From: Longimicrobiales bacterium
GTDB lineage: Bacteria > Gemmatimonadota > Gemmatimonadetes > Longimicrobiales > Gaopeijiaceae
Direction of reading: 5' to 3'
Assembly (NCBI GenBank): GCA_963664435.2
Contig: CAXXKM010000002.1
Span: forward strand, 192,001 to 256,000
DNA length: 64,000 nt
Part shown: piece by piece, positions 14,900 to 28,800 of the stretch
How the letters are laid out: every line of letters starts with the position of its first letter
How positions within the stretch are numbered: position 1 is the stretch's first letter
The notes under the pieces: model-generated
What the model was told of the DNA's origin: nothing
Databases searched by the model: none
What the model saw: the letters and a program-made list of their open reading frames with translations, nothing else
Position numbers and translations under genes: made by a program

Positions 14900-16942
14900 A
14901 TGCCCGCTTCCCCGCTTCCGGACGCCGCACTTTCGCGCCTGGCGATTGACGCCGTGCGCGTGCTCTCGATGGACGCCGTGCAGAAGGCCAACTCCGGGCA
15001 TCCGGGGGCACCGATGGGGCTGGCGCCGGTGGGATATCTGCTCTGGACCCGACACCTGCGCCACAACCCGGCGAACCCGGAGTGGAGCAACCGGGACCGC
15101 TTCGTGCTCTCGGCCGGGCACGCGTCCATGCTCATCTATTCGCTGCTGCATCTGACCGGATACGATCTGCCGCTGGAGGAGATCCGGAGCTTCCGGCAGT
15201 GGGCATCGCGCACGCCCGGGCACCCCGAGTACGGGCACACGGCGGGGGTGGAGACCACGACGGGGCCGCTGGGTCAGGGGGTCGCCAATTCCGTGGGGAT
15301 GGCGCTGGCGGAGCGCTGGCTGGCGCACCGGTTCAACCGGCCCGGGCACGCGGTGGTGGATCACCACACCTGGGCGCTCTGCTCGGATGGCGACCTGATG
15401 GAGGGGATCTCGCACGAGGCGGCCGAGTTCGCCGGCCATCAGCGGCTGGGCAAGCTGAACTGGGTGTTCGACGACAACCGCATCACCATCGACGGCGGGA
15501 CGGATCTCTCGTGCTCCACGGACCACGAGCAGCGCTTCCGCGCGTACGGGTGGGACGTGCGCCGGGTGGAGGACGGCACCGACCTGGCCGCACTGGACGC
15601 GGCGCTGGCGGGGGCGCGGGCAGAGGTGGAGCGGCCCTCGCTGGTGGTCGTGCGCACCACGATCGGGTACGGGAGCCCGGCCAAGGCGGGGTCGTCGAGC
15701 GCGCATGGGGCGCCGCTGGGGGTGGAGGAGGTGGATGCCACCAAGCGCAACCTGGGCTACCCCTCCCGCGACCCCTTCCACGTGGAGGCGGAAGCGCTGG
15801 CGCACTGGCGGGAGACGGCGGGGCGGGGGGCGGGGCTGGAGGAGGTATGGCGGGGGCGGTGGGCGGCCTACCGGGCGGAGCATCCCGCGGCGGCCGAAGA
15901 GCTCCGCGCCGCCTTGGCGGGCGAGCTGCCGGCCGGCTGGGACGCGGACATTCCCGACCTGAGCGCGCCGCCGAAACCGCTTGCGACCCGGGTGTACTCC
16001 GGGCAGGTGCTCCAGGGGCTGGGCAGGCGCATCCCCAACCTGTTGGGCGGCTCGGCCGACCTGGCCGGCTCCAACAAGACAACCCTGCCCTGGGAGGAGA
16101 ACCTGCTGCCCGGGACGCCGGGCGGGCGCACGATGCATTTCGGCGTCCGCGAGCACGCCATGGGGGGCATCCTGAACGGGATGGCGCTGCACGGAGGCGT
16201 CCGCCCGTACGGAGGCACCTTCCTCATCTTCTCGGACTACATGCGCCCCTCGATCCGACTGGCGGCGCTCATGCATCTGGCGCCCACCTACGTGTTCACC
16301 CACGACAGCATCGGCGTCGGCGAGGACGGCCCCACCCACCAGCCCATCGAGCAGCTGGTGTCGCTGCGCGCCATCCCGGGGGTGCTCGACCTGCGCCCCG
16401 GCGACGGGCCCGAGACGGCGGAAGCGTGGCGGGCGGCGCTCGCGTACACCGACGGTCCCAGTTTTCTGGCGCTCACCCGCCAGGCGGTGGCGACCATCGA
16501 CCGGAACGTGGCCGCCCCCGCGACCGGCCTGCACCGGGGCGGCTACGTCCTTCTGGAAGCGGACGGCGGGGACCCGGAAGTGATCCTTATCGCGAGCGGC
16601 TCGGAGGTCGGCGTGGCCGTGCAGGCGCGCGCCACGCTGCAGGCGGAGGGGGTGCCGACCCGGGTGGTGTCCCTGCCCAGCTGGTTCCTCTTCTCCCGCC
16701 AACCGCAGCGCTACCGCGACGAGGTGCTTCCCCCGAGCGTCACGGCTCGCGTGTCGGTGGAAGCCGGGACCACGGCCGGCTGGACCCGCTGGACCGGCGA
16801 CCGGGGCGCTTCCGTCGGCATCGACCACTTCGGGGCGTCCGCCCCCGGCGCGGTGCTCTTCGAGCAGTTCGGGATCACCGCGGAGGCGGTGGTGGCCAGG
16901 ACGCGCCCGCTGGCGAGGGTGCCGCAGCCGGTCCGGGGATAG
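14900..16942 (+). CDS. tkt: Transketolase
   Basis: [55 protein letters not shown]. Confidence 0.98.
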
Positions 16943-17079
16943 CCTGCCACGAGCGCCGCCCCACCAACCGGTCGGGCAGGTGCTTGCGTTCGACGGACAC
17001 CCCCCGATCAGCCCTCGTCGGTCTGGACCGGGACATCAACAACGCCCTTCGCTGAAGAGGGTGGGAGTTCCTTGCGTGT

Positions 17080-17104
17080 TTTCGATGCGGAGCGGGATTG
17101 CGAC
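17080..17104 (+). promoter_or_regulatory. Candidate alternative-sigma promoter TTTCG-N13-TTGCGAC upstream of the Ubl operon
   Basis: Identical bipartite motif and spacing at 19378-19402; followed by a Shine-Dalgarno ACAGGAG and ATG 17140. Confidence 0.65.
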
Positions 17105-17139
17105 TAATGGAATAGGCAATCTCAGACAGGAGCACCCCA

Positions 17140-17397
17140 ATGACCGCTTCAAACATCGAACAGTTCGGACGCCGCATCCCGTTCACGATCGACGGGCAAC
17201 CCTTCACAACGGACGACCTCAGTCAGCGTGCCTCGGCGCTTCTTCGTCTGGCCGGCCTGGACCCTGCCACCTTTGACCTAGGAGAACTACAAGGCAAGGA
17301 GCGTCCGCAGACGAAGCGCTTCCGCGATGACGAGATCGTCTCCATCGTCAAGGATGCCCGGTTCATTACAATCCGCCAGAGCGCACCGGTGGCCTGA
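17140..17397 (+). CDS. Ubiquitin-like (multi-ubiquitin family, single beta-grasp) protein
   Basis: Pattern FTIDG..F....ALLRLAGLDP..FDL....DDEIVSI....RFITI; good SD; first gene before the E2- and E1-like genes. Confidence 0.75.
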   Translation: MTASNIEQFGRRIPFTIDGQPFTTDDLSQRASALLRLAGLDPATFDLGELQGKERPQTKRFRDDEIVSIVKDARFITIRQSAPVA

Positions 17398-17744
17398 TGC
17401 AAACGGGTGTCGAAGCGTTCATGCGGGAGATGGCAGAGCTCGGCTTCGGGCCGACGCTCGAGGACGAGCTCGTCATCTACAAGCTAGCGGCGGTCGGCGG
17501 TGCCCACCCAGGAACATCGCTCGCAACTGGTGTCGGAGTTCACGAACTCCAGCCGTGGCCTCAGGCACCGCCGCACTGGCTTCACTTCTCAGCTGGCTTG
17601 AGGTTCACACGCACCAATAGCAGGCCGTCTCCGAAGTCTGGGTGGCTAATGCATAGCCGTCAGATAACGGGGTGGGGTGATGCCCCACCTGGAGTGGCGT
17701 GGGCAAGCCATGTCAGGGCGGTGCTTAGTGAGACGGTCGCGTGA
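17397..17744 (+). CDS. Prokaryotic E2/UBC-like protein (no cysteine)
   Basis: WPQAPPHWLH (the YP..PP-like E2 motif), GWLMHSRQ..W; TGATG overlap with Ubl; lies between Ubl and E1. Confidence 0.68.
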   Translation: MQTGVEAFMREMAELGFGPTLEDELVIYKLAAVGGAHPGTSLATGVGVHELQPWPQAPPHWLHFSAGLRFTRTNSRPSPKSGWLMHSRQITGWGDAPPGVAWASHVRAVLSETVA

Positions 17745-19246
17745 TGCGCCGAACATCAGTGGCCATGACGGCTGCGACCGAGGAGGCGCTTCTCCGCCAG
17801 ATTGTTCGCGACGACGGGCAAGAAGACCTTTGCCTCGCCACGTATCGGCCCTCCACCGGGCTGACCCGCTTCAGCGCCTTGGTCCGGGCGGTCGTCCGAC
17901 CCATGCCTGGGGATCGACTCGTCCATGGAAACGCCACTGTCACCGCCGATTACATCTTCAGGGCCGCGGAAGCGGCGCAGAAAGACAACTGCGGCGTAGT
18001 GCTACTCCACAGCCACCCCGGCGCCAGCAACTGGCAGCAAATGAGTGGTCCAGATCGCGAGTGCGAGGCCAGTTACGCCAACCTCGTGCGTGAGCTCACA
18101 GGACTTCCACTGGTTGGTATGACGCTGGCTACACGGAACCGCACCTGGTCGGCACGTCACTGGGACACCGGAGTCGGCCGAGCGGTCGATTGCACGCACT
18201 GCACGAACGTACGGGTAATCGGCGACAAGTTAGCGGTGTCTTGGAATGACGCAGTCCAACCACCTCCCCGGCCCAATGGCAGCCAGACCAGGACCGTTAG
18301 CGCTTGGGGCGAGCAGTGCCAAGCCGATCTCGTCCGGCGAAGAGTCCTTGTCGTGGGGACCGGTAGTGTCGGGCTCGATGTCTTCGTACGCCTCGCCGCA
18401 TCTGGGCTGTACCAGTTGACGGTGATGGATCACGACATCGTCGAAGTCCACAACCTGGACCGGCTTATAGGCGCGTCATCCCGCGATGCGCACCTGAGGC
18501 GGCCCAAGATTCACGTAGCCGTGCGGGAAGCCACGGCAGCAGCTACTGCGGACAGGTGCAGTATCCAGGCTTCGGACCGGTCCATCTGTGAACCGGAAGG
18601 GCTGCGGCTGGCACTCGATCATGACCTCATTTTCAGCTGCGTCGACAGGCCATGGCCACGAGCTGTACTCAATTCACTAGCGTACTCCGACCTCATCCCG
18701 GTTATCGATGGTGGCACGGCCATAGATACCTTCGACAGCGGGGAAATGCGCAATGCCACCTGGCGATCTCACGTCGTTAGACCGGGGCGTCCGTGCATGA
18801 GTTGCAATCGCCAGCTCCAACTCGGCGAAGTTGCTCTCGAGCGCCAAGGACTGCTCGATGATCCTGCTTACATCCAAGGCGTTGGAGAGGGACCGGCGTC
18901 AGTCAGCCCGAATGTGGCTCCGCTCTCTGCAAACGTTGCTGCGACCATCCTTGCTCAGTACGTCAGCTTCAGTGTGGCTCCTGCTGGCTTCGGCGATCCG
19001 GGCCCACTCCAGTACCTATTGAGCACTCACTGTCTCGAGCATCGCAGGGATGCGACAAGCCTACACTGCGCCGTTGAAGCTGACGAAGGTGTCGGCGATC
19101 ATCGCGTCTGCCTGACGGGCCTCCATGACGTCGCCGAACGACAACGACGACTCTCAAGGTCGGTAAGAACCCGCGTTCGTTGGCTCCGCTGGGTGGACGA
19201 TCGTACGCAATTCGTTACGAGGTGGTTGGACCGTGTCGTATCATGA
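17741..19246 (+). CDS. JAB metallopeptidase - ThiF/E1 adenylyltransferase fusion
   Basis: N-terminal E (GQED) and HSHP...S..D JAB motif; C-terminal VVGTGSVG, DHDIVEVHNLDRL, CVDRPWPR, IDGG, PCMSC. Confidence 0.88.
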   Translation: MMRRTSVAMTAATEEALLRQIVRDDGQEDLCLATYRPSTGLTRFSALVRAVVRPMPGDRLVHGNATVTADYIFRAAEAAQKDNCGVVLLHSHPGASNWQQMSGPDRECEASYANLVRELTGLPLVGMTLATRNRTWSARHWDTGVGRAVDCTHCTNVRVIGDKLAVSWNDAVQPPPRPNGSQTRTVSAWGEQCQADLVRRRVLVVGTGSVGLDVFVRLAASGLYQLTVMDHDIVEVHNLDRLIGASSRDAHLRRPKIHVAVREATAAATADRCSIQASDRSICEPEGLRLALDHDLIFSCVDRPWPRAVLNSLAYSDLIPVIDGGTAIDTFDSGEMRNATWRSHVVRPGRPCMSCNRQLQLGEVALERQGLLDDPAYIQGVGEGPASVSPNVAPLSANVAATILAQYVSFSVAPAGFGDPGPLQYLLSTHCLEHRRDATSLHCAVEADEGVGDHRVCLTGLHDVAERQRRLSRSVRTRVRWLRWVDDRTQFVTRWLDRVVS

Positions 19247-19377
19247 ATCTCGAGATTCTTGGCCGCGCCGCCTCCCGCGTTGAGATGCCGCATCGAAACT
19301 CGGACGATCCGGCGGTCCGTGCGGGGCAAACCAGCGTTGCCTCGCACGCGTCTGTCTACTTGGCGGGTGTGGTCCGC

Positions 19378-19402
19378 TTTCGCCCTCCACGTCGTTTGCG
19401 AC
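19378..19402 (+). promoter_or_regulatory. Second copy of TTTCG-N13-TTGCGAC, 12 nt before the sigma-factor start (near-leaderless)
   Basis: Direct match to 17080-17104; no SD before ATG 19415. Confidence 0.65.
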
Positions 19403-19414
19403 GGTTGAATTGAC

Positions 19415-20137
19415 ATGGACTCACGCGCAATCGACTCCACCCACCCACTCCTGGCGGACAGGGAGCGTCTCGATGCGATCGCCGACGTCATGTACGCAAA
19501 GATCCAGAAGACTCTCTTTCCAGGGAATCCGGTACGGCGCCGCCGGGCACTGGCGAGTCAATCCAACGATACGGGCGAGGGAGAACGGATTCTGGAGGGG
19601 ACCGGAGTCAGCGCGGATGATGTTCTCTCCGAAGCGCTTGTCGGACTTCTTCAGTACCCACCAGCGCGCCTCAAGAGCACATGGGAGGGCTTGGCTGTCA
19701 CGATCGCCCGAAACAAGGCAACCAGCGCGTTGCGCGCTTCGGGGAAAGGCCTGAGAGGCACTGACCATCGACCCAAACTGCAACTGGTGTCGGGCGATGC
19801 CGAACGGGAAGGTCCGTCCGGTGAAACCCAGCCAACGCTCTTCGCATCACTTCCTAGCAACTGGGTTGATCCGGAAACCGAATACACTGTCACACAAGGT
19901 GCATTGAAGTTGCTCGACCTCGCCCGAGAGATCCTCGATGAACGAAACCAAGAGATCTTTCTTGCGATTCACTTCCGTGGCGAAAGTCGCAAGGAAGTCG
20001 GTGAACGACTTGGTTTGACCACCCAGCGGATCGGACAAATCTACAATGGCGCCCTGGGCATGCTGGAAGCCCGCCCTGATTATCCCTTCAAGCGTAGCGC
20101 ACGAGTCGACCGTATTGCAACAAAGGGAAGCCGATGA
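19415..20137 (+). CDS. ECF-like sigma-70 family RNA polymerase sigma factor
   Basis: Region 2-like ADDVLSEAL...AVTIARNKATSALR; region 4 HTH LDERNQEIF...GESRKEVGERLGLTTQRIGQI. Confidence 0.82.
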   Translation: MDSRAIDSTHPLLADRERLDAIADVMYAKIQKTLFPGNPVRRRRALASQSNDTGEGERILEGTGVSADDVLSEALVGLLQYPPARLKSTWEGLAVTIARNKATSALRASGKGLRGTDHRPKLQLVSGDAEREGPSGETQPTLFASLPSNWVDPETEYTVTQGALKLLDLAREILDERNQEIFLAIHFRGESRKEVGERLGLTTQRIGQIYNGALGMLEARPDYPFKRSARVDRIATKGSR

Positions 20138-21033
20138 CCATTGAGCATGACGACCTTCGCAGATTCAAGGACTCCTACCTGGATTACCTTGAGGGCTACC
20201 GCGACGAGCCCCCCCGGCTCGAGAAGGTTTTATTAGAAGAGCGCGGAGCAGCTGCAGCGTTCATCGAATCGATTGCGGCGGCGCGCGGCATAGATCCCTA
20301 CGCTTCCAGACCGTCGATCGAGCAACTCCTGGCTCGGCGGCCCCAGACCAACGACAGCATTGCTGAACTCGGCGGCGTACTCCAGGAACATCTGCGATTC
20401 ACCGTTGATCCAGGCGCTTCGGTCACAGCGGACCTCGCTTCTGTTGCGGCCGGGCTGGCTTCTGTCTCGTTAATCCAAGCGCGTGGTATGCGTATCCGAG
20501 TAGTGCTGGAAGCAAATGCGGTGGACCTCGAATCCGCCATCGCCAGAAGAGCCCAACATATCGCCGACGTGTTCAGCGCCTTTCCCGACTCGCATGCGGT
20601 ACTCTACGCCACCACAGGGAGAGAATGTCTAGGAGTTGTGGTGGATCGGAGCGACGTCTACAGTGCCATCGAAACTCCCTCCGGCGAGAAACGGGCGCCT
20701 CGGCTGCAACGGTCGATCACCGACGCTGGAGTGGCATGCGAAGAGTGGCTAGCCGGCATGATCCCGAATTTTGAGCCCCTGAGCGCTGAACTCCTCGAAT
20801 CAGCTACTCATGAGTCGGCAGTAGATCCACTCCGCTTGGCAAGCGAGGCAGTACGGGAAGTTTCCATGGCCGGTGGACGAGCCAGGATAGGGGCCAAACG
20901 GGCCGCTTGGCGCGGCTTCGGGCTACAGGAGGCGCAACGTCTTGCTGCCATCCTTCGCGAAGCTGAACGCGGACAATTGTCAGAAGAGGTCTATAGGTCT
21001 CGCTTGGATGAATTGGTCAGGATAGCCGCATGA
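20134..21033 (+). CDS. Hypothetical protein (candidate anti-sigma / adaptor)
   Basis: 299-aa ORF coupled by ATGA overlaps to both the sigma and ATPase genes; helical N-terminus with YLDYLEG. Confidence 0.7.
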   Translation: MTIEHDDLRRFKDSYLDYLEGYRDEPPRLEKVLLEERGAAAAFIESIAAARGIDPYASRPSIEQLLARRPQTNDSIAELGGVLQEHLRFTVDPGASVTADLASVAAGLASVSLIQARGMRIRVVLEANAVDLESAIARRAQHIADVFSAFPDSHAVLYATTGRECLGVVVDRSDVYSAIETPSGEKRAPRLQRSITDAGVACEEWLAGMIPNFEPLSAELLESATHESAVDPLRLASEAVREVSMAGGRARIGAKRAAWRGFGLQEAQRLAAILREAERGQLSEEVYRSRLDELVRIAA

Positions 21034-22814
21034 TTCACAAAATACGCCTGCGAAACTGGCGATCCTACGAAGACCTCGACCTTCAGCTTGATCGGGGCAC
21101 GACATTTGTCGTGGCTCCCAACGGCGTGGGGAAAACGTCACTCGTGTACGGCCTCGCATGGGGTGTGTTTGGGCAACATAGCAGGGTCGACCCAAAAACC
21201 TGCATACGGGCGGCGGCGGCGAGTGCGGAAGTCGAGGTCGAGGTGGGTTTTCCCGACGGACGCCGGCTCACCATCAGACGAACTGCAAAGCGGCGAGGTG
21301 CTCCTACCGCTACATACGAAATGGGTGGGGCGAGGCTAACCGAGGGTGCAGCCCTGGCGAAAATGACGGAGGGATTTGGGATAGAACTCCCCGTGGCTGG
21401 TCGTTTGGCGATGATGCTGGGCGGGGGACACATCGAAGCTAGTCGCACTCTGAACCTCGAAGGCCACCTACATCATGCTTTCGGAGTTGCTCACCTTCTG
21501 GGTGCAGCCGAGACTGCACGGTCTGTTGCCAAGGAGGCTCAGAAGGCGCGAGCGGCCCTCCGGTTGACGACCAAGCAACGAATGGACAATCGCGCCGCAC
21601 TCGAGAGTGAGATCGCCCGTCTCGAATCAGAGATCAGCCAACTCACGCACCGTGGTGCCGACCTTGAGCGAATGCGGGACGCTGCTGCTATTCAAAGGTC
21701 GTTGGTCGAGCGGCACCTGGCGCTCGCGAATCAGTTCGAACGGTATGAGGGGCAACGCTCGCGCCTACTCGGCACGATCCAGGACCTGCTCGGCCGACGG
21801 GTCTCCCACGACAGCGACGAGTTAGTCCGTTCCGAGCTGCGGAGTGAGTTGGAAGCATCTGAACGCCGAATTCTCCAACTGACCGAGGGTGCTGTGTCGG
21901 CACGTTCTGCTATATCCGCTTCCAAACAGGCCGTTCGGTTGCTCGACGAACAACAGGCGACCTGTCCCACTTGCAGGCGTCCTCTTCCTCATCAGGAGTG
22001 GACCGCAGCGATATCTGCTCACAGGAGACAACAGGAAAAAGCAGAAGCGGAGGTAGAACGCCTTGAAGAGGCTCGCAGGGTGAGACAGACACACGCACTC
22101 ACGGTTTCTCGGGTGCTGGCCCGGCTAGAAGCGCTCCGGCCTCCTCGCATCCTCGTTGAGGACGACAGTCTCCCCACCCCTGCTGATGCTGACGCCCTGT
22201 ACCAACAGGCTAATGCTGATCTCGATGAACACAACCGGCGGCTTGGTGGAGTGCGTTCTCGTCTGGAATCTCTACGGACCAAGGTTGCTTCGGATGACCG
22301 GCTTCAGCAGGAGGAGCGAAGTCTTCGGTTGGCCTATCGGAGAGAGGCTGCCGCCCTTGCGGGAGAAAGGGTGTTGCGAGGGGCTGCTGATCACGTGATC
22401 GAGTCTCGCATCAAGCCGATGGCGAACGAGCTGCGAGGACGCTGGAAGCACCTGTTCACAAGCAATGGCCTCATCTTTAGGCCTGATGGGTCGATTACCA
22501 GGTTTCGGGCCGGGGAGGAGCTAGGATGGGATACGCTAAGCGGCGGTGAACAGACGTGGGCCAGAATCGTCACCCACTTGATCGTATTGAGTACTACGAC
22601 ATCCCTTCCCTTCGCATGGTTTGACGAACCGCTCGAACACCTTGACCCGCAGTTGCGTCATGCTGTCGCAGCAACCCTCGCCACAGCCACCGCTGGAGGT
22701 TCTCCCCGTCAACTCCTAGTTACGACCTACGAACACGCCATCGCGCAGCAGTTGGCTGATGACACGGATGGTGCTGGAATCATAGCCATACGGGAGTCCG
22801 GTGCCTCGCCATAG
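21030..22814 (+). CDS. Rad50/SbcC-like coiled-coil ABC ATPase with zinc hook
   Basis: IRLRNWRSY, Walker A APNGVGKTS, central CPTC, signature LSGGE, Walker B/D-loop FAWFDEPLEHLD. Confidence 0.9.
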   Translation: MIHKIRLRNWRSYEDLDLQLDRGTTFVVAPNGVGKTSLVYGLAWGVFGQHSRVDPKTCIRAAAASAEVEVEVGFPDGRRLTIRRTAKRRGAPTATYEMGGARLTEGAALAKMTEGFGIELPVAGRLAMMLGGGHIEASRTLNLEGHLHHAFGVAHLLGAAETARSVAKEAQKARAALRLTTKQRMDNRAALESEIARLESEISQLTHRGADLERMRDAAAIQRSLVERHLALANQFERYEGQRSRLLGTIQDLLGRRVSHDSDELVRSELRSELEASERRILQLTEGAVSARSAISASKQAVRLLDEQQATCPTCRRPLPHQEWTAAISAHRRQQEKAEAEVERLEEARRVRQTHALTVSRVLARLEALRPPRILVEDDSLPTPADADALYQQANADLDEHNRRLGGVRSRLESLRTKVASDDRLQQEERSLRLAYRREAAALAGERVLRGAADHVIESRIKPMANELRGRWKHLFTSNGLIFRPDGSITRFRAGEELGWDTLSGGEQTWARIVTHLIVLSTTTSLPFAWFDEPLEHLDPQLRHAVAATLATATAGGSPRQLLVTTYEHAIAQQLADDTDGAGIIAIRESGASP

Positions 22815-22920
22815 CACGAGTAATTCCGACAATGGTGTGGCGGGCCTGTTGCTAGCGGGCTGGCGAACGCGGATGCCCGGCGCGTATGTGTGGCCCGGGC
22901 TCGACCTGTCTCCGCCAAAG

Positions 22921-24300
22921 CTATTCTTGCTCTCCCGAGCGGCGCGCGATTTTGGCCATCAGGGCTTCGACTATCGCGTTCACTGTAGGGTCGTCTTCCA
23001 AGTCCCAGGACGCGAGTTCCGAATACCGAACATGTTGGATTGACAATGGGATGGGCTTCCCTTCAATGTGGGCCAAGAACGCGACTCTTCTGCCGTCCAG
23101 CACCCAGACCAGAGACAGCGCAACCGAAAACCCTCGGATTCCGCGTCCCGTGTAGCCCTTCCAATGGTAGTCTCTACGCAGCTCGATCTGCTGCTGGTCG
23201 CTCAACCGAAATCCCGGCGTCACCAAGCCCAGTTTGGTCTCTTCCCAATGTTCAATCTGGAGCAGGCTCCACGACCGCCTTACCGCGCGTTGCCCTACCG
23301 CCGCGTAGGACTCCCAAGTGCTTCCACTAAACAATCGACCTAACGATTCAAGCGCTCTATCCGCGCGGTCCAACGTCGGATTAACCCATCGCTGGAAAAC
23401 ATTATCCAGCACTTCGACATCCGCCACTCGCGGTTCACCACCCAAGTTCCGCCGGACGAAGAGTTCGACTTCCTTTTCGGCATCCCCGGCTTCGCGGATC
23501 GACTCTCCCTTCGCGACGCGAACCGCCAAGCCGATGGACCAAAAGACATTCTCAAGCATGAACCCTGCAAGCGGCTCCATCCGGCCCACATCGGCGTTCT
23601 GAAGCGCCCCGATATATCGGTCCCGCTCGGCGCTCTTGATCACCATCGGAGGCAAACCGGACCTCAGCAGGACGTAGTTGGTGAGCAGCCGCGCCGTACG
23701 TCCGTTTCCATCATCGAACGGATGAATCCGGAGGAAGCTCCAATGCGACTTGGCCAGGAAGAGGGGTAGGGGATCTGCGGTGCGCGCGAGATCCCGCTGG
23801 AAGTCCCGCGTCCAACGTTCCATCAACGCCGGCGTCTCCTCCGGCTCCGCGAATCGATGTAGTTCTCCGGTCGCAGTTCGCACGTGGTTCGGCTGCGTCT
23901 TGTACTCTCCCGGAACGATCCGCTTCCGGGTCTGCTGCCCGTCCGGAGTCTGCGCGATGTGCCAGAATGGCTCCTTCAGGAGAATCTTGTTCAGATCCCG
24001 GATGTCGCCCTCACCCAGAACGCGCTCGGCACTCGCCAGACTGCGCGTGTGGTCGATCGCTACATCGTGCGCCTTCATCTCCTCGTAGTGCCGCATCGGA
24101 TGCTCGCCAGCCGTTCGGCCATGGATGAGCAGCAGCTCGGTCTCGTGATAGGTGAGGGTGTTTCCCTCAATGTGATTGCTGTTGTAGTTCCACTCGAGGC
24201 GCAGCTTCCTCCACAGCCGCTCGTCATCTTCCTCACGCATGGTTGCCCGGCGTTCCCGCCATTCCGAGATCGCCGCCGCCAATGCCTCCGAGTCCATCAT
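22921..24300 (-). CDS. Fic family protein (N-terminal inhibitory motif, class II-like) with C-terminal extension
   Basis: SNHIEGN and HPFDDGNGRTAR. Confidence 0.92.
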   Translation of the reverse strand: MMDSEALAAAISEWRERRATMREEDDERLWRKLRLEWNYNSNHIEGNTLTYHETELLLIHGRTAGEHPMRHYEEMKAHDVAIDHTRSLASAERVLGEGDIRDLNKILLKEPFWHIAQTPDGQQTRKRIVPGEYKTQPNHVRTATGELHRFAEPEETPALMERWTRDFQRDLARTADPLPLFLAKSHWSFLRIHPFDDGNGRTARLLTNYVLLRSGLPPMVIKSAERDRYIGALQNADVGRMEPLAGFMLENVFWSIGLAVRVAKGESIREAGDAEKEVELFVRRNLGGEPRVADVEVLDNVFQRWVNPTLDRADRALESLGRLFSGSTWESYAAVGQRAVRRSWSLLQIEHWEETKLGLVTPGFRLSDQQQIELRRDYHWKGYTGRGIRGFSVALSLVWVLDGRRVAFLAHIEGKPIPLSIQHVRYSELASWDLEDDPTVNAIVEALMAKIARRSGEQE

Positions 24301-24409
24301 TCTCCCCTGCATGTTCCGCTGGCACCTGCCCGCCAGGCTCGTAGACCGTAGACCGTAAGGTATCGCGATGTCTCAACCTGGCCGCACGGGTTCCACGCCC
24401 TGCACCCCT

Positions 24410-25687
24410 TCACGGCCCCAAAACCCCCACCGGTATGACCCCCACGCCATCCGGCCGCTGGTAGCCATATCCGCTGCCGACGATGACGGCGAGTGCTGCC
24501 GGTTCACCGCTACCGGTCGTGTCCACACGATTCCCGAACTTGAGAAGCGCGGCTGCCGCTTCGTCGATTCGTCCCTGGCCCAGCGTCACTTCGAACGCGG
24601 CCCATCGGCCGGGACCGGCATCCACGATCGCGTCCACTTCGAGGCCCGTGTTGTCACGATAGTGGTATACGCGCCCGCCCATCGCCTGAGCGTACACGCG
24701 CAGGTCTCGAACGACCATGGACTCGAAGAGAAAACCGAACCACGGGATGTCCTTCATGAGGTTCCCGGGTCCGGCATTCAGCGCCGCCGTCGCGAGGGAT
24801 GGATCCGTGAAGTGTCGTTTCGGGGAGCGTCTGAGGCGTGATCGGGACCGAAGATGAGGGGCCCACGGTGGCTGCTGCTCAACCACCATGAGGCGTTCGA
24901 GCGCTGCGAGGTAGGAACGGGCAGTCTCCTTCGTGAGCGAATGGTCGGTGCCGCCTGCATCTCTCGCCATGGTCGCGACCGACGTGCAGGTAGCCGTGTT
25001 TCGCGCCAGCGTCTGGAGGAACCGGCCAACTCTCTCCGGATCCCTCACGATCCCGTCCACCCGCCTGATGTCCACCCGGCGGATTTCGTCCAGGTAGTCG
25101 CGGTTGGCCAGCAATGCGCCTTCCTCGGCCTTCCGGCGAAAATGCCCGGGCCAGCCACCGACGCAAATCAGCGTGGCCAAGTCCCGAAGGGGCAGGTCGT
25201 GAACCAGGCTGGGTACGGGCTCTCCGTCGAGGATTCGCTTCAAGGAGACCTGTCCCGTTGCGCGCCCGAGCTCGAACAGCGACATGGGACGGAGCCGAAG
25301 GCGGCTCATCCGGCCGGCTCCCGTATGCCGCGGGATGTCATCGGGTGGAACGGCTGAGCCGGTGAGGATGAAGTGGCCCAAGCCCGGGCGATCATCGACG
25401 GCGCGTCGCACGTAGTTCCAGATGTCGGGCTCGGCCTGCCACTCATCGATCAATCGCGGAGTCGCTCCTTCCAGGAGCAACCTCGGGTCGACAGCCATGG
25501 TCTGGGGCACGGCCGGATCGGCATCCATGAGCACTTCGCTCGCCGCCGCCTGCCGGGCCGTCGTGGTCTTGCCGCAGACCCTCGGCCCCTCGATCACGAC
25601 AGCTCCCGCTGCCGCGAGCCTTTCGGTCAATTCACGGTCAGCAATGCGGGGACGATAGCCTGACACGGATGTGGGATCGGGTGTCAT
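24410..25687 (-). CDS. AAA_14 / DUF4143 ATP-binding protein
   Basis: GPRVCGKTT, LIDEWQ, FILTGS, LRPMSLFE, PKRHFTDPS, LFES, HYRD..GLEVD. Confidence 0.9.
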   Translation of the reverse strand: MTPDPTSVSGYRPRIADRELTERLAAAGAVVIEGPRVCGKTTTARQAAASEVLMDADPAVPQTMAVDPRLLLEGATPRLIDEWQAEPDIWNYVRRAVDDRPGLGHFILTGSAVPPDDIPRHTGAGRMSRLRLRPMSLFELGRATGQVSLKRILDGEPVPSLVHDLPLRDLATLICVGGWPGHFRRKAEEGALLANRDYLDEIRRVDIRRVDGIVRDPERVGRFLQTLARNTATCTSVATMARDAGGTDHSLTKETARSYLAALERLMVVEQQPPWAPHLRSRSRLRRSPKRHFTDPSLATAALNAGPGNLMKDIPWFGFLFESMVVRDLRVYAQAMGGRVYHYRDNTGLEVDAIVDAGPGRWAAFEVTLGQGRIDEAAAALLKFGNRVDTTGSGEPAALAVIVGSGYGYQRPDGVGVIPVGVLGP

Positions 25688-25714
25688 GTAGGGGAGTATG
25701 GCAGATCGAGCGTG

Positions 25715-25829
25715 GTTTTGCAACGATATCAGCCGTCTGTTTGCAACCTATAAGACGGTCTGTTTGCAACGCACTTGATCGTGCGTTCGCAACTTCATCA
25801 GCCATGGATTTGCAATTTGCCTGTTTGAC
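25715..25829. repeat. Five-unit array with exact 23-bp period and conserved TT(T/C)GCAA core, overlapping the -35 of the DUF4143 gene
   Basis: Cores start at 25718, 25741, 25764, 25787 and 25810; the intervening ~13 nt vary. Confidence 0.8.
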
Positions 25830-25897
25830 GACCCCCCGCTGCCGCCTTGGCGATCGACCGCCATGCAGCTCCCGATCCACTCCGATCCCTCCGGGCG

Positions 25898-28800
25898 CTA
25901 CCCGCCAGCGAGGCGCCCCGCTGCGGCCAGCGCGCGGCGGACGAGGTTTCGCTCGATGGTTGCGGTGGGGGAGGGATCACCGGCGAGCGAATCGGCGCGG
26001 GCGCGCAGTGAGGCGACCGCTTCAGCATCGGCAGAATCGGTGTCGGACCCACCGCTGGCGCCCGCCCCCACGACCCCGAGCAGGAACCGCACCAGCTGCT
26101 CGTCCGGATCGAAGGGACGGCCCTGACCGAGCGATTCCGGCCATTCGAGCGCGGTTTCCAGGTGGCCGCGGGCGGCCGTGCGGCTCCCTTCATCGACTTC
26201 GTCGAGCGCGGCTCCGACATGCGCCAACTCGTAGAGGCGGTGGCTCTCGCGGGCGTTCTCCGAGGGAAGGACGTGCGTGTCCGCCAGGATCCGGATCGCC
26301 TCGCCGTGGTCGCCCGCCTGAAGAAGCGAGCGCACGTGCAGGAGATCGAGGTTGAAGTCGCCCGGGAAGAGCTCCCGACCCCGGCCGGACGCTTCGAGCG
26401 CCTCCGCCCAGCGTCCCGCTTCCTGCAGGTGCCGGACGAGGGCAACGTGGAGCAGACGGCTGCCGGGAGCCACCGCGACCGCGCGCCGGAAGTCGGGCCC
26501 CGGGTCGCCGTCCATCGCCCCCGTCAGGTGCGCGCGCGCCGCATACGCGGGTCCGTAGTCGGGCTCGTCGCCGAGGGTGGCCAGCACCTCGGCCGCCTCG
26601 GCATCGCGGTCGAGCGCCCACAGGTTCAGGCCCAGCAGGTAGCGCCAGCCCCAGTGCGGATCCTCGCCGGCTGCCCAGCGCAGGACTGGCAAGGTCTCGG
26701 CTCGGAAGGGAAAGGCGAAATTGGGATCCACCCCCGCGCTCAGCATGCCGGCATCGTCGACCAGGAAGGCGTGCCACGCCGCAGCCACGGGGCCGCCGTC
26801 CACCTCGTCCGCCAGCTCCAGCAGGTGCGCGGCATCGCTTGGCAGTCCCCGGTTCGCGTAGCTCACGGCGAGCTCCAGCAGCGTCTGCCCCGGGTACTCG
26901 CTCCGCATCGACGCGGTGAGGCGGGCAGCGGCGGACCCGCCCGCGGCCTCGGCGTCCCCGGATCCTTCGCCACGCGCCGCGAGATACCGCTCCGCCAGCG
27001 CGAAATGGTTGAGCGGGTCCAGCTCCAGCAGCTCCGCCAGCACGCCCGCCGCGCCGGCATCGTCCCCCTCCAGACGGGCCGCGATCGCCAGCACCTCGCG
27101 TGCGGGAATGCTTGCCCGGTCATGGTCGAGCGCCAGCCCGGCGTTGCGGCGCGCCTCCGCCAGGTCCCCGCCGTCGAGCGCCAGCTCCGCCAGCCGAATC
27201 CGGGCAGCGGCCCGGAAGGCCACCGAGCGGGCGGCCCAGCCGAACGCGTCGAACGCGTCGGCGCGGCGGCCGAGGGCGCGATACAGGTTCCCCGCGAGGA
27301 AGTTGGCCTCCGGGCCGTAGGTGTCCAGCTGGAGCGCGCGCCGCACGTGGTCGAGGCCCTCCTCGTAGCGGGCCGACCTCAGTGCCAGCGCGCCCAGGCC
27401 CAGCAGTGCCGCCCGGTTCCACGGTTCGGCCGCGAGCGCCTGGCCGTAGAGCGCCCGCGCCTCAGGGTAGCGGCGACCCCGCGCCAGCTCCCGCGCCTCG
27501 AACACGAGCCGATCCGTCTCCGGGAGCGCGTCCCACGCTTCGGCGCTCGTCGCAAATGGCCGGGACACGACGCGATCGCCATCGAGACCGCAAATGCCAC
27601 CGAGGCCGGCCTCGCCCGGGTTGGAACATCCCTCCAGCCCCAGTCCGGGCACCGAAACCCGCCACGGGCTGTCGGGCGCCACATCAACCTCGACCACCAC
27701 CGGCTCGAGCGGTTCGAGCGCCACGGTCCGCGCCGCGACCTGCTCACCGCCGGACCATGCCTTTACCGTGTCGGCACCAGCCCCGAACGCCTGGACCACC
27801 ACCCGAAGGCCGCCATCCTCCTGTTCAACGTGCAAGGCGCCGTAGGGGGAGGCGTCGGTGAGACCGCCCGTGCCCTCGAGCGGGAACCACACCTCGGTCC
27901 AACGGCTGGCCGAGAGCGGGTCGAACGCGGCCTGAGAGATGGGGTTGCGGTCGGCCCCGGGCTGGTACTGCACGTGCAGTCGGCCCGCCTGGAACTCGAC
28001 GTACTGCCCGTCGGTGTCGGTGAGCAGGTCCTCCCAGATGCCGCCTTCGCGCGACAGCGCCCACAGCCACATCTTGCGTCCGGGCATGTCCTCATGGCGG
28101 GCCCAATGTCCCCAGCCGTACTCCTCCTCGTGATAATAGCCGCCGAAGAAGTCGTTCAGCGCGCCCACCACGTGGTAGGACTTGCTTCCCCCGAACGCGT
28201 TGTTGCGGTAGAGGGGCAGGAAGCGCCCATCCTCGTCCACGGGCCACGGGCGCACCCGACCGGAGTGCTCCAGGTAGGCGTTGCCGGGCACGAACAGCTC
28301 CAGGTCGTCCTGGGCGAACGCCGCGGCTGTCATCCAGTTGTAGTAGGGCTGTTCCAGTGGGGTCGGGTTATGCCACAGAACACGCGTCTCGAAGGCGGCA
28401 CGGTCCGCAGGCAGGCGGATCTCGACGCGCCACGGGGTGCGCGACGGGAGGTCCGTGGCGCCGACGATGGTGCTCACGCTCCCGTCCGGGTTCTCCCGCA
28501 CCACATAGTCGACAGGCGTGGCGGTGGCCGGCGTGTGCCCGATCACCCCGAAGTTGAACTCGATACCGCCCGAGGTCCACGGCCCGCGCAGGGCGATGTC
28601 CCGGAATTTCATCACTTCGTTCCGGTAGATGAACTCGTGGCCGGTCGCCTTCACCACGGCGCCCCACACCTTGCCGCCCACTTCGGGAAGGACGAAGACC
28701 TCGATGAGATCGTTCTCCATCCTCACGACCTTCCATTCCCGGGGCTCCGGCGTCGCCGCGTATCCCTCGAAGGAGTGGTACGGGTACAGCCTCCGGTCGG

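Follow-up and report, generated by a model that had tools for sequence, protein, structure and literature searches.

How might a bacterial ubiquitin-like conjugation operon come under a transcription switch of its own, and what would throw that switch? A locus in DNA from a Longimicrobiales bacterium (contig CAXXKM010000002.1, positions 192,001 to 256,000) raises both questions; this whole 64,000-nucleotide stretch is called the window below. At 17080..22814 it carries two three-gene operons on the same strand, and their six open reading frames (ORFs) lie where a first-pass annotation, made from the letters alone, had put them (Table 1). The first operon encodes a ubiquitin-like protein (Ubl), an E2-like protein and a JAB peptidase-E1 fusion (JAB-E1). 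The second, here called the triad, encodes a sigma factor of the extracytoplasmic function (ECF) type, a protein of 299 amino acids (aa) and a short Rad50-like ATP-binding cassette (ABC) ATPase. Comparison of sequences indicates that the six-gene cassette is real, conserved and mobile. We favor, at a little better than even, the reading that it is a Bub-lineage conjugation operon placed under a portable sigma/anti-sigma/ATPase switch.

Linkage of the two operons

Among the 23 genome loci found through the 299-aa family, 17 have all six genes and 20 have the sigma gene with a full Ubl operon, and the genome loci with the cassette come from several phyla. The operons stand head-to-head at 41 loci and in tandem at seven (the window included), so the linkage survives rearrangement, and the co-occurrence proposed in the first-pass annotation is borne out in two orientations; near-duplicates are kept in these linkage counts. 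The 80 metagenome loci found through JAB-E1, which are the best 80 of 467 and many of which lie on short contigs, have the sigma gene in 27 cases and all six genes in 19, three near-duplicates included. Where at least 1.5 kb is present on both sides (n = 33), the sigma gene is found in 14 and the triad is absent in 19, the latter number including locus L084, which has a distant triad. In a quick tree of 60 JAB-E1 proteins the 39 sigma-linked members fall in one clade (support 96), inside which lie also those of L011 and L074, two loci with a helix-turn-helix (HTH) gene and an IrrE-type peptidase gene. Such HTH and/or IrrE-type genes are found upstream in 18 of the 20 sigma-less metagenome loci scanned.

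A predicted promoter motif that goes with the sigma gene

The pattern TTTCG-N13-TTGCGAC matches at the two promoter positions of Table 1 and nowhere else in the 64 kb, and it has 0 matches in each of 100 dinucleotide shuffles, a control that is circular on its own because the pattern was derived from these two sites. With the window's sites kept out of its training, a matrix ranks them first and second of the 167 core-motif sites in the 4.5-Mb genome; the analysis took up these top two, and within that scope no wider regulon is proposed for the genome. Across loci (duplicates dropped, window counted, pattern picked by eye), 38 of the 43 that are sigma-linked have TTTC-N16-18-CGAC ahead of their Ubl gene, and 40 of 47 sigma genes are likewise preceded by it. 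Sigma-less loci have it in 1/16 cases with full flanks and 2/19 with short ones (both end just past JAB-E1), against a shuffled background of 0.5%, and L011 and L074, with their JAB-E1s nested in the sigma clade beside HTH and IrrE genes, are without it. The supposed tie between the shared motif and the sigma factor is thus upheld, and from this covariation the sigma very likely drives both TTTC-N17-CGAC promoters. The copy before its own gene would probably give autoregulation, from a near-leaderless transcript.

The sigma factor matches Sigma70_r4 (E 5.3e-6) and Sigma70_r2, the latter with an E value of only 0.002, and it also matches the KORA repressor model (E 0.0014). Such divergence would suit a sigma-like protein repurposed as a repressor or activator, for which the motif is an operator and not a holoenzyme promoter. 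The motif, however, is bipartite and non-palindromic, keeps a constant spacing and direction and stands a few bases ahead of sigma start codons; no sigma-70 consensus is found before either operon; and the protein passes TIGR02937 (44 bits, cut-off 42.9). We regard an operator as the least probable of the explanations weighed here, and continue with a promoter-reading sigma.

The 299-aa protein as predicted anti-sigma

The 299-aa protein has no family match of its own, and its model (predicted local distance difference test, pLDDT, 69.7) consists of an N-terminal helical module, a central domain and C-terminal helices. A complex model of the sigma with residues 1-72 reached 0.83 in three runs, and the highest-scoring of its three controls 0.00; the mark applied is reached by 116 of 157 solved pairs and 2 of 215 mismatched pairs, counts that are only rough with our own alignments. 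The modeled contacts fall on sigma residues 16-79 and 159-218, which are regions 2 and 4, the runs agree to at least 79%, and the pLDDT of the partner is at least 83. The C-terminal two thirds of the protein are homologous (97.2%, E 4.3e-11) to a family, A10, that bears a zinc anti-sigma domain, with an invariant N-terminal HxxxCxxC motif and zf-HC2 annotated in 2 of 49 members. Another relative has zf-HC2 above cut-off together with a ChrR anti-sigma model match; the protein in the window is without the HxxxCxxC zinc motif. The complex model and these homologs make the proposed partner of the sigma very probably its anti-sigma.

The fold of the central domain matches PD-(D/E)xK nucleases (BpuSI, Z 8.2; Hjc, Z 7.9; VIA). 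In the third strand, where D/E-x-K usually stands, R120 is found in 46/50 and R122 in 47/50 family members, the R120-x-R122 register being taken from secondary structure and not from a residue-level structural alignment. Because R-x-R replaces the expected catalytic strand, we read the modeled domain as a restriction-nuclease fold without catalytic residues, and as dead.

In two distant relatives, P0335 and P0388, extra sequence separates the N-terminal module from the nuclease-like fold; in P0388 this sequence matches the XRE-type HTH family PF13560. An apparent 540-aa fusion of sigma and 299-aa protein (P0267) and a 205-aa protein (P0264) look like frameshift read-throughs and were not used.

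The ATPase and its place in the proposed switch

The ATPase matches SMC_N (E 1.5e-15), with a weak zinc-hook match, and its best PDB matches are Rad50. Walker A G34-K35-T36, the hook cysteines C312/C315, the signature S504-x-G506-E507 and Walker B D532-E533 are invariant in 25/25 proteins.

At L013, L015, L064 and L109-L111 the sigma is kept, the N-terminal module is fused to an HExxH domain, and no ATPase is found in the available flank. These fusions of 362-369 aa themselves fall below the IrrE Pfam model and are assigned by the HExxH motif and by the relative P0354, which matches IrrE PF06114 (E 1.9e-4). As judged from these sequences, the sigma/anti-sigma core accepts interchangeable C-terminal partners, one of a kind that is known to be DNA-damage-responsive. 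This interchangeability is the main reason, an indirect one, for treating the ATPase as a sensor. The sigma/anti-sigma pair is well supported, and to it we infer a sensing ATPase; that the ATPase is the upstream DNA sensor seems to us on balance somewhat probable.

The sigma and anti-sigma might instead run both operons with the ATPase as an output or a brake, for example as part of a DNA-binding or scaffolding complex that includes the dead nuclease domain and resets the switch, the signal coming to the anti-sigma from elsewhere, as by proteolysis. The ATPase would itself be transcribed from a sigma-type promoter, its H-loop is altered, and the HExxH fusions have the sigma and the N-terminal module persisting without an adjacent ATPase. 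The pairing of the two genes speaks against such an arrangement: the full-length 299-aa type always has the ATPase after it where the contig extends, and every ATPase-led locus with upstream DNA has a 299-aa-type neighbor. Moreover, the ATPase is lost exactly where a peptidase-type domain has taken the place of the C-terminal part, as would suit sensor modules that can be exchanged, and its catalytic motifs and hook do not vary. We consider an ATPase of this kind unlikely, and keep to the ATPase as sensor.

Triads without the Ubl operon

When 401 + 401 genomes around two Actinomycetota-titled records were searched with the ATPase, 15 and 3 carriers were found (a tally that includes G050, which was left out of the analysis). 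The Ubl operon is adjacent in three of the 16 new carriers, and the other 13, which are draft genomes, have no JAB-E1 relative at E<=1e-20. The stand-alone triads are a more distant sister clade of the sigma triad. A variant motif, TTTC-N16-CGAT, stands before the sigma gene and again just after the ATPase gene in 6/8 flanked loci; the ATPase gene is followed by a second ECF sigma gene at four loci (SnoaL-fused in two) and by an ABC-2 exporter at two, and further variant-motif sites in these genomes precede short or unassigned ORFs. Triads that lack JAB-E1 and have the motif before other targets indicate that the triad is a portable controller of adjacent genes and the six-gene unit modular, not obligate. 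The six-gene system first proposed thus stands as a linkage but not as an obligate unit, since the Ubl operon is often under HTH and IrrE genes and a clade of triads goes without JAB-E1.

These counts bear also on a closed six-protein circuit, in which Ubl is conjugated to the anti-sigma or to the ATPase, or the ATPase or pseudo-nuclease finds targets in the manner of an E3, with operon 2 a functional part of the pathway. Such a circuit would account for tight linkage in two orientations and in a third order, with the triad directly upstream of the Ubl gene (L084 and L151), and for the lack of a BubE or E3 gene in the cassette. It leaves unexplained the 19 of 33 well-flanked metagenome loci where the Ubl operon does without a triad and the 13 of 16 ATPase genomes without a JAB-E1 relative, and we think it quite improbable beside a modular switch.

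The third order, at L084:706-6970 and L151:4181-11574, runs co-oriented from a gene for 311-337 aa through a 433-aa zinc anti-sigma protein, ATPase, Ubl and E2 to JAB-E1; the core motif was not found at either locus. The 311-aa first gene of L084 was tried as a sigma and rejected (sigma profile alignment 0.5%, no sigma Pfam match), and is a positional candidate only. A LigD primase-polymerase gene adjoins two stand-alone triads (L139:10644-11567 and L144:5462-6475), a hint of break repair or chance.

The probable conjugation operon

On their own the Ubl, the E2-like protein and the 299-aa protein have no match in Pfam, PADLOC or NCBIfam; the identities of the first two are supported by homologs and fold. 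Multi_ubiq PF14452 is matched by 32/43 Ubl homologs at E<=0.1 (best 3.2e-9), and the Ubl profile matches Ubl-BilA 8u38 (E 0.0014). The AlphaFold model of the E2-like protein (pLDDT 96.4), compared with 48,161 chains (VIA), has BubB 9eav_D on top (Z 7.6, root-mean-square deviation 3.7, 110 aligned), with E2/UEV chains next, and its Ser87 and Arg88 are kept in 43/43 proteins. Sequence searches with it against PDB gave nothing useful, Foldseek gave no match at E<=0.001 for it or for the 299-aa model, and all scores in the ESM Atlas search were below 0.9.

JAB-E1 matches ThiF PF00899 (E 5.9e-24) and, weakly, Prok-JAB, and its best PDB match is Citrobacter BubCD (E 4.6e-19, residues 9-354). The JAB zinc site (E28/H90/H92/D105) and the adenylation residue Arg241 are intact; H90, H92, D105, R241, C352, C355 and Y377 are found in 60/60 relatives and E28 in 58/60, and the crossover loop (356-395) has a Cys in 0/60. 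Tyr377 corresponds to BubCD Y370 as matched by position beyond the aligned stretch.

The C-termini of 81 distinct Ubl relatives are -VA in 67, -VE in eight and Gly in one. CBASS Cap2 takes an Ala-ended substrate. Because the Ubl has no terminal glycine, a non-conjugating operon has to be considered, with the Ubl as a sulfur carrier or a non-covalent partner; that Gly-ended Ubls are so rare, and that ThiF/MoeB models head the NCBIfam matches of JAB-E1 (all far under cut-off), would agree with it. The invariant Tyr377 and Ser87, however, stand at the positions of the Bub catalytic Tyr and Ser, Arg241 and the JAB zinc ligands are likewise invariant, the best matches in structure are to BubCD and BubB, and no sulfur-metabolism family recurs among the neighbors. 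The Ubl of L012 has two extra residues after -VA, as would be expected if the JAB domain trims after the Ala. A non-conjugating role is in our view very unlikely, and by analogy with Bub operon 1 is probably an active conjugation pathway, a part of the reading that we hold with fair assurance.

Ubl ends in -PVE, with E1/E2 motifs otherwise intact, occur at L053, L059, L062, L069, L071, L075, L079 and L084. The window's own genome, G000, has a second, distant Ubl, E2-like and JAB-E1 operon on contig C1 at ~737-741 kb (L091:9150-13239), with a JAB-E1 42% identical to that of the window, a divergent HTH and IrrE pair and a Ubl-like ORF that ends ...SQLDG. At three loci of the peptidase-type anti-sigma, JAB-E1 is followed by a conserved, Pfam-negative gene for 350-390 aa (L013:4080-5126, L015:6432-7610 and L064:10525-11652). 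A 3.5-kb insertion interrupts the JAB-E1 gene of L094; the Ubl operon is decayed in L100 and L113, with only a remnant or the Ubl remaining; and the sigma or ATPase gene is frameshifted in L022, L098 and L064, where assembly errors are possible.

Proposed mechanism

In the resting state the sigma would be held, through regions 2 and 4 as modeled, by the N-terminal module of the 299-aa protein, whose dead nuclease fold and C-terminal helices may tether it to the ATPase and/or DNA. By analogy with Rad50 and LmuB, the ATPase would meet abnormal DNA, most probably free ends produced by damage or brought by an invader, and the anti-sigma would let go. The freed sigma would then transcribe both TTTC-N17-CGAC promoters, as motif covariation suggests, that of its own operon (a positive loop with a built-in brake) and that of the Ubl operon. 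If Bub biochemistry is a guide, the E1 would adenylate the Ala-ended Ubl and pass it by way of Tyr377 to E2 Ser87 and so to target proteins, and the JAB domain would trim or remove it. An anti-phage purpose is conceivable, and we lean slightly against it.

Several points tell against this mechanism. Because the loci are related, with one JAB-E1 clade, the linkage counts are not independent. The complex model may have passed through resemblance to sigma/anti-sigma pairs of known structure. For the middle domain of the 299-aa protein the fold match is middling (Z 7-8, at the model pLDDT given above), and the N-terminal module of that protein does not align, profile to profile, with the zinc anti-sigma domain (2.2%). 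In the ATPase the H-loop His position reads T-T-Y (Thr/Tyr), and turnover may be unusual because of this change. The Ubl of the window ends in Ala and not Gly, and 8/81 relatives end in Glu. Finally, nothing about the targets of the stand-alone triads (another ECF sigma, an ABC-2 exporter) clearly marks them as genes of DNA repair or defence.

The chemistry of Bub is established, and according to PMC13373217 no protective role has been demonstrated for it. A private sigma with a defined promoter offers a direct handle for activating the pathway and following its conjugates and the resulting phenotype. Should the ATPase gate the anti-sigma, SMC-family DNA sensing would be tied to transcription initiation, and a positive-acting class would be added to the repressor-type controllers of immune operons; the switch may be an undescribed route from DNA alarm to gene expression. 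An Ala-ended Ubl would broaden the substrate rule for Ubl-activating enzymes.

Gene layout and genomic setting

Stop and start codons overlap within the operons (TGATG, GTGA, ATGA and ATGA in gene order), and the operons are 168 nt apart. The GC content of the six genes is 0.58-0.63, against 0.73 in the transketolase-like gene upstream and 0.68 across the genome. The coordinates, these GC figures and the two motif sites in 64 kb bear out the six ORFs, overlaps, shared motif and A/T-richer island of the first description.

Table 1. Features of the cassette, in window coordinates
Feature	Coordinates	Strand	Product	Remarks
Predicted private-sigma promoter TTTC-N17-CGAC, before Ubl operon	17080..17104	+		24.8 bits, top site genome-wide
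Ubl, one beta-grasp domain	17140..17397	+	85 aa	C-terminus ...SAPVA; Multi_ubiq-type by homologs
Stand-alone E2/UBC-fold protein	17397..17744	+	115 aa	Invariant Ser87-Arg88, His60, His105; conserved Cys absent
JAB peptidase-E1 fusion, BubCD-like	17741..19246	+	501 aa, GTG start	Crossover-loop Tyr377; ThiF and BubCD matches
Second predicted promoter copy	19378..19402	+		22.9 bits, second-best genome-wide; 12 nt before sigma start codon
ECF-type sigma, regions 2 and 4 only	19415..20137	+	240 aa	Sigma70_r2/r4, TIGR02937
Predicted anti-sigma	20134..21033	+	299 aa	Helical sigma-binding module ~1-70, dead nuclease-like fold ~64-211, C-terminal helices
Short Rad50/SbcC-like ABC ATPase	21030..22814	+	594 aa	Coiled coils, CxxC zinc hook; SMC_N, Rad50 PDB matches

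The cassette is flanked by the transketolase-like gene on one side and by a Fic (PF02661) and AAA_14-DUF4143 pair on the other. It is at the same site in 0/18 other genomes of the genus, one of which (G010) has a single short, distant JAB-E1 match at a different site, and its ATPase was not found among 300 sampled genomes of the phylum. The site holds other cargo in congeners: a type III restriction-modification cluster in G009, and a DUF222-HNH gene and transposases in G001 and G008. Absence from the 18 congeners together with this other cargo marks the cassette, on present sequence comparisons, as a recent horizontal arrival at a variable site that also receives defence genes. The closest JAB-E1 relatives (<=82% identity) are in records titled Deltaproteobacteria, Latescibacterota, Chloroflexota, Acidobacteriota and Alphaproteobacteria, many of which are presumably sponge symbionts.

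A variable hot spot follows the transketolase-like gene (16942-26000), and many congeners have Fic/DUF4143 genes there. The Fic and DUF4143 genes, noted at first as lying beside the cassette, are indeed its neighbors but not parts of the system: they are residents of the hot spot, because both occupy the site in congeners without the cassette. Four to five imperfect 23-nt tandem repeats ending in TTGCAA (25708-25815) lie directly upstream of the DUF4143 gene, with same-site matches in congeners. One public contig is identical to the window over 16327-27000, with zero differing letters, and is possibly the window's own source; sequence joints with short sides in that comparison were not accepted as excision.

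Comparison with known systems

Operon type 6e, in which the Ubl and JAB-E1 genes flank a separate gene for an E2-like protein, was described in 2006 (PMC1779556), and Type I Bub, formerly 6e/DUF6527, uses Tyr oxyester chemistry with BubAB, BubCD and BubE (10.1101/2024.11.21.623953). Operon 1 shares with Bub the JAB-E1 fusion, the crossover-loop Tyr with no catalytic Cys, a Ser-type E2 of the BubB fold and a Multi_ubiq-type Ubl. It differs in that Ubl and E2 are separate genes and the Ubl ends in Ala, in an E2 site of H-S-R plus a downstream His where Bub has S-x-H plus Asp, in an E1 that keeps CxxC and a C-terminal extension, and in its regulator, the sigma triad. No bubE (DUF6527/PF20137) was found in G000 (96% complete) or among 39 ORFs downstream of JAB-E1 relatives, and there is no Ubl-E2 fusion to be cleaved after a conserved Gly, the genes being separate and 1/81 Ubls Gly-ended. 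By sequence, operon 1 is of the Bub/6e lineage, likely with the same chemistry as Bub and without two of its defining features; it is a new variant of Bub and not new in kind. It does not belong with Bil (type I/II), as JAB is fused to E1 and neither the E2 nor the E1 loop has a conserved Cys, nor with Type II cyclic-oligonucleotide-based anti-phage signaling systems (CBASS, Cap2/Cap3), as there is no CD-NTase among the six proteins and E1-E2 models match the adenylation part only.

The six-gene combination was not found in the literature searched, which did not take in subscription papers, supplements (including Bub Table S1) or the ABC-ATPase and ECF group classifications. The first-pass annotation's view of an unrecognised combination is therefore sustained to that extent, but operon 1 alone was already known as 6e/Bub. 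What may be new, and we put this forward only tentatively, is a class of signaling in which the anti-sigma of a soluble ECF sigma is gated directly by a DNA-end-reading Rad50/SMC ATPase, a Lamassu-like sensor with transcription and not cell death as its output, that plugs into different operons, here BubE-less conjugation of an Ala-ended Ubl.

Regulators of the CapH/CapP type, HTH plus IrrE, are published for Bub (10.1101/2024.11.21.623953; PMC13373217; 10.1101/2024.11.21.623966), and CapH+CapP, CapW and CapK+CapS are repressors relieved by a single-stranded-DNA-activated peptidase, a WYL domain or a kinase (PMC13373217). The triad holds the same slot beside the Bub-type operon, usually divergent, alternates with HTH and IrrE genes, and presumably responds likewise to DNA damage or an invader; in contrast, it is predicted to be a positive regulator, in which an anti-sigma and an SMC-family ATPase accompany a sigma.

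In Lamassu a Rad50-derived ATPase of ~600 aa binds DNA ends and frees its partner (PMC12663957). The triad likewise has a Rad50-like CxxC-hook ATPase of ~600 aa after a ~300-aa partner with a nuclease-type fold and a helical C-terminus, and in PADLOC the ATPase matches the LmuB model over its full length (E 7.8e-15) and the Mad3 model (E 3.5e-17). In its PDB profile search Rad50 heads the matches, and none of the chains listed bears the name LmuB; the LmuA and LmuC models match none of 50 family members at E<=0.05, and LmuA is absent among the 299-aa fold matches listed. The ATPase may thus belong with Lamassu or not, and membership is unsupported for its partner. Unlike in Lamassu, the nuclease fold here appears dead, the output would be a sigma and not a toxic effector, and the ATPase profile is closer to Rad50 in the PDB search.

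A defence island under an ECF sigma has a precedent in DdvS-DdvA of Myxococcus xanthus, where DdvA sits in the membrane and senses through a periplasmic TPR-CHAT part (PMC11506125). An N-terminal anti-sigma domain that binds ECF sigma regions 2 and 4 is common to that pair and, by prediction, to the cassette, whereas the anti-sigma described here is predicted to be soluble, has no zinc ligands and has a DNA ATPase for its partner.

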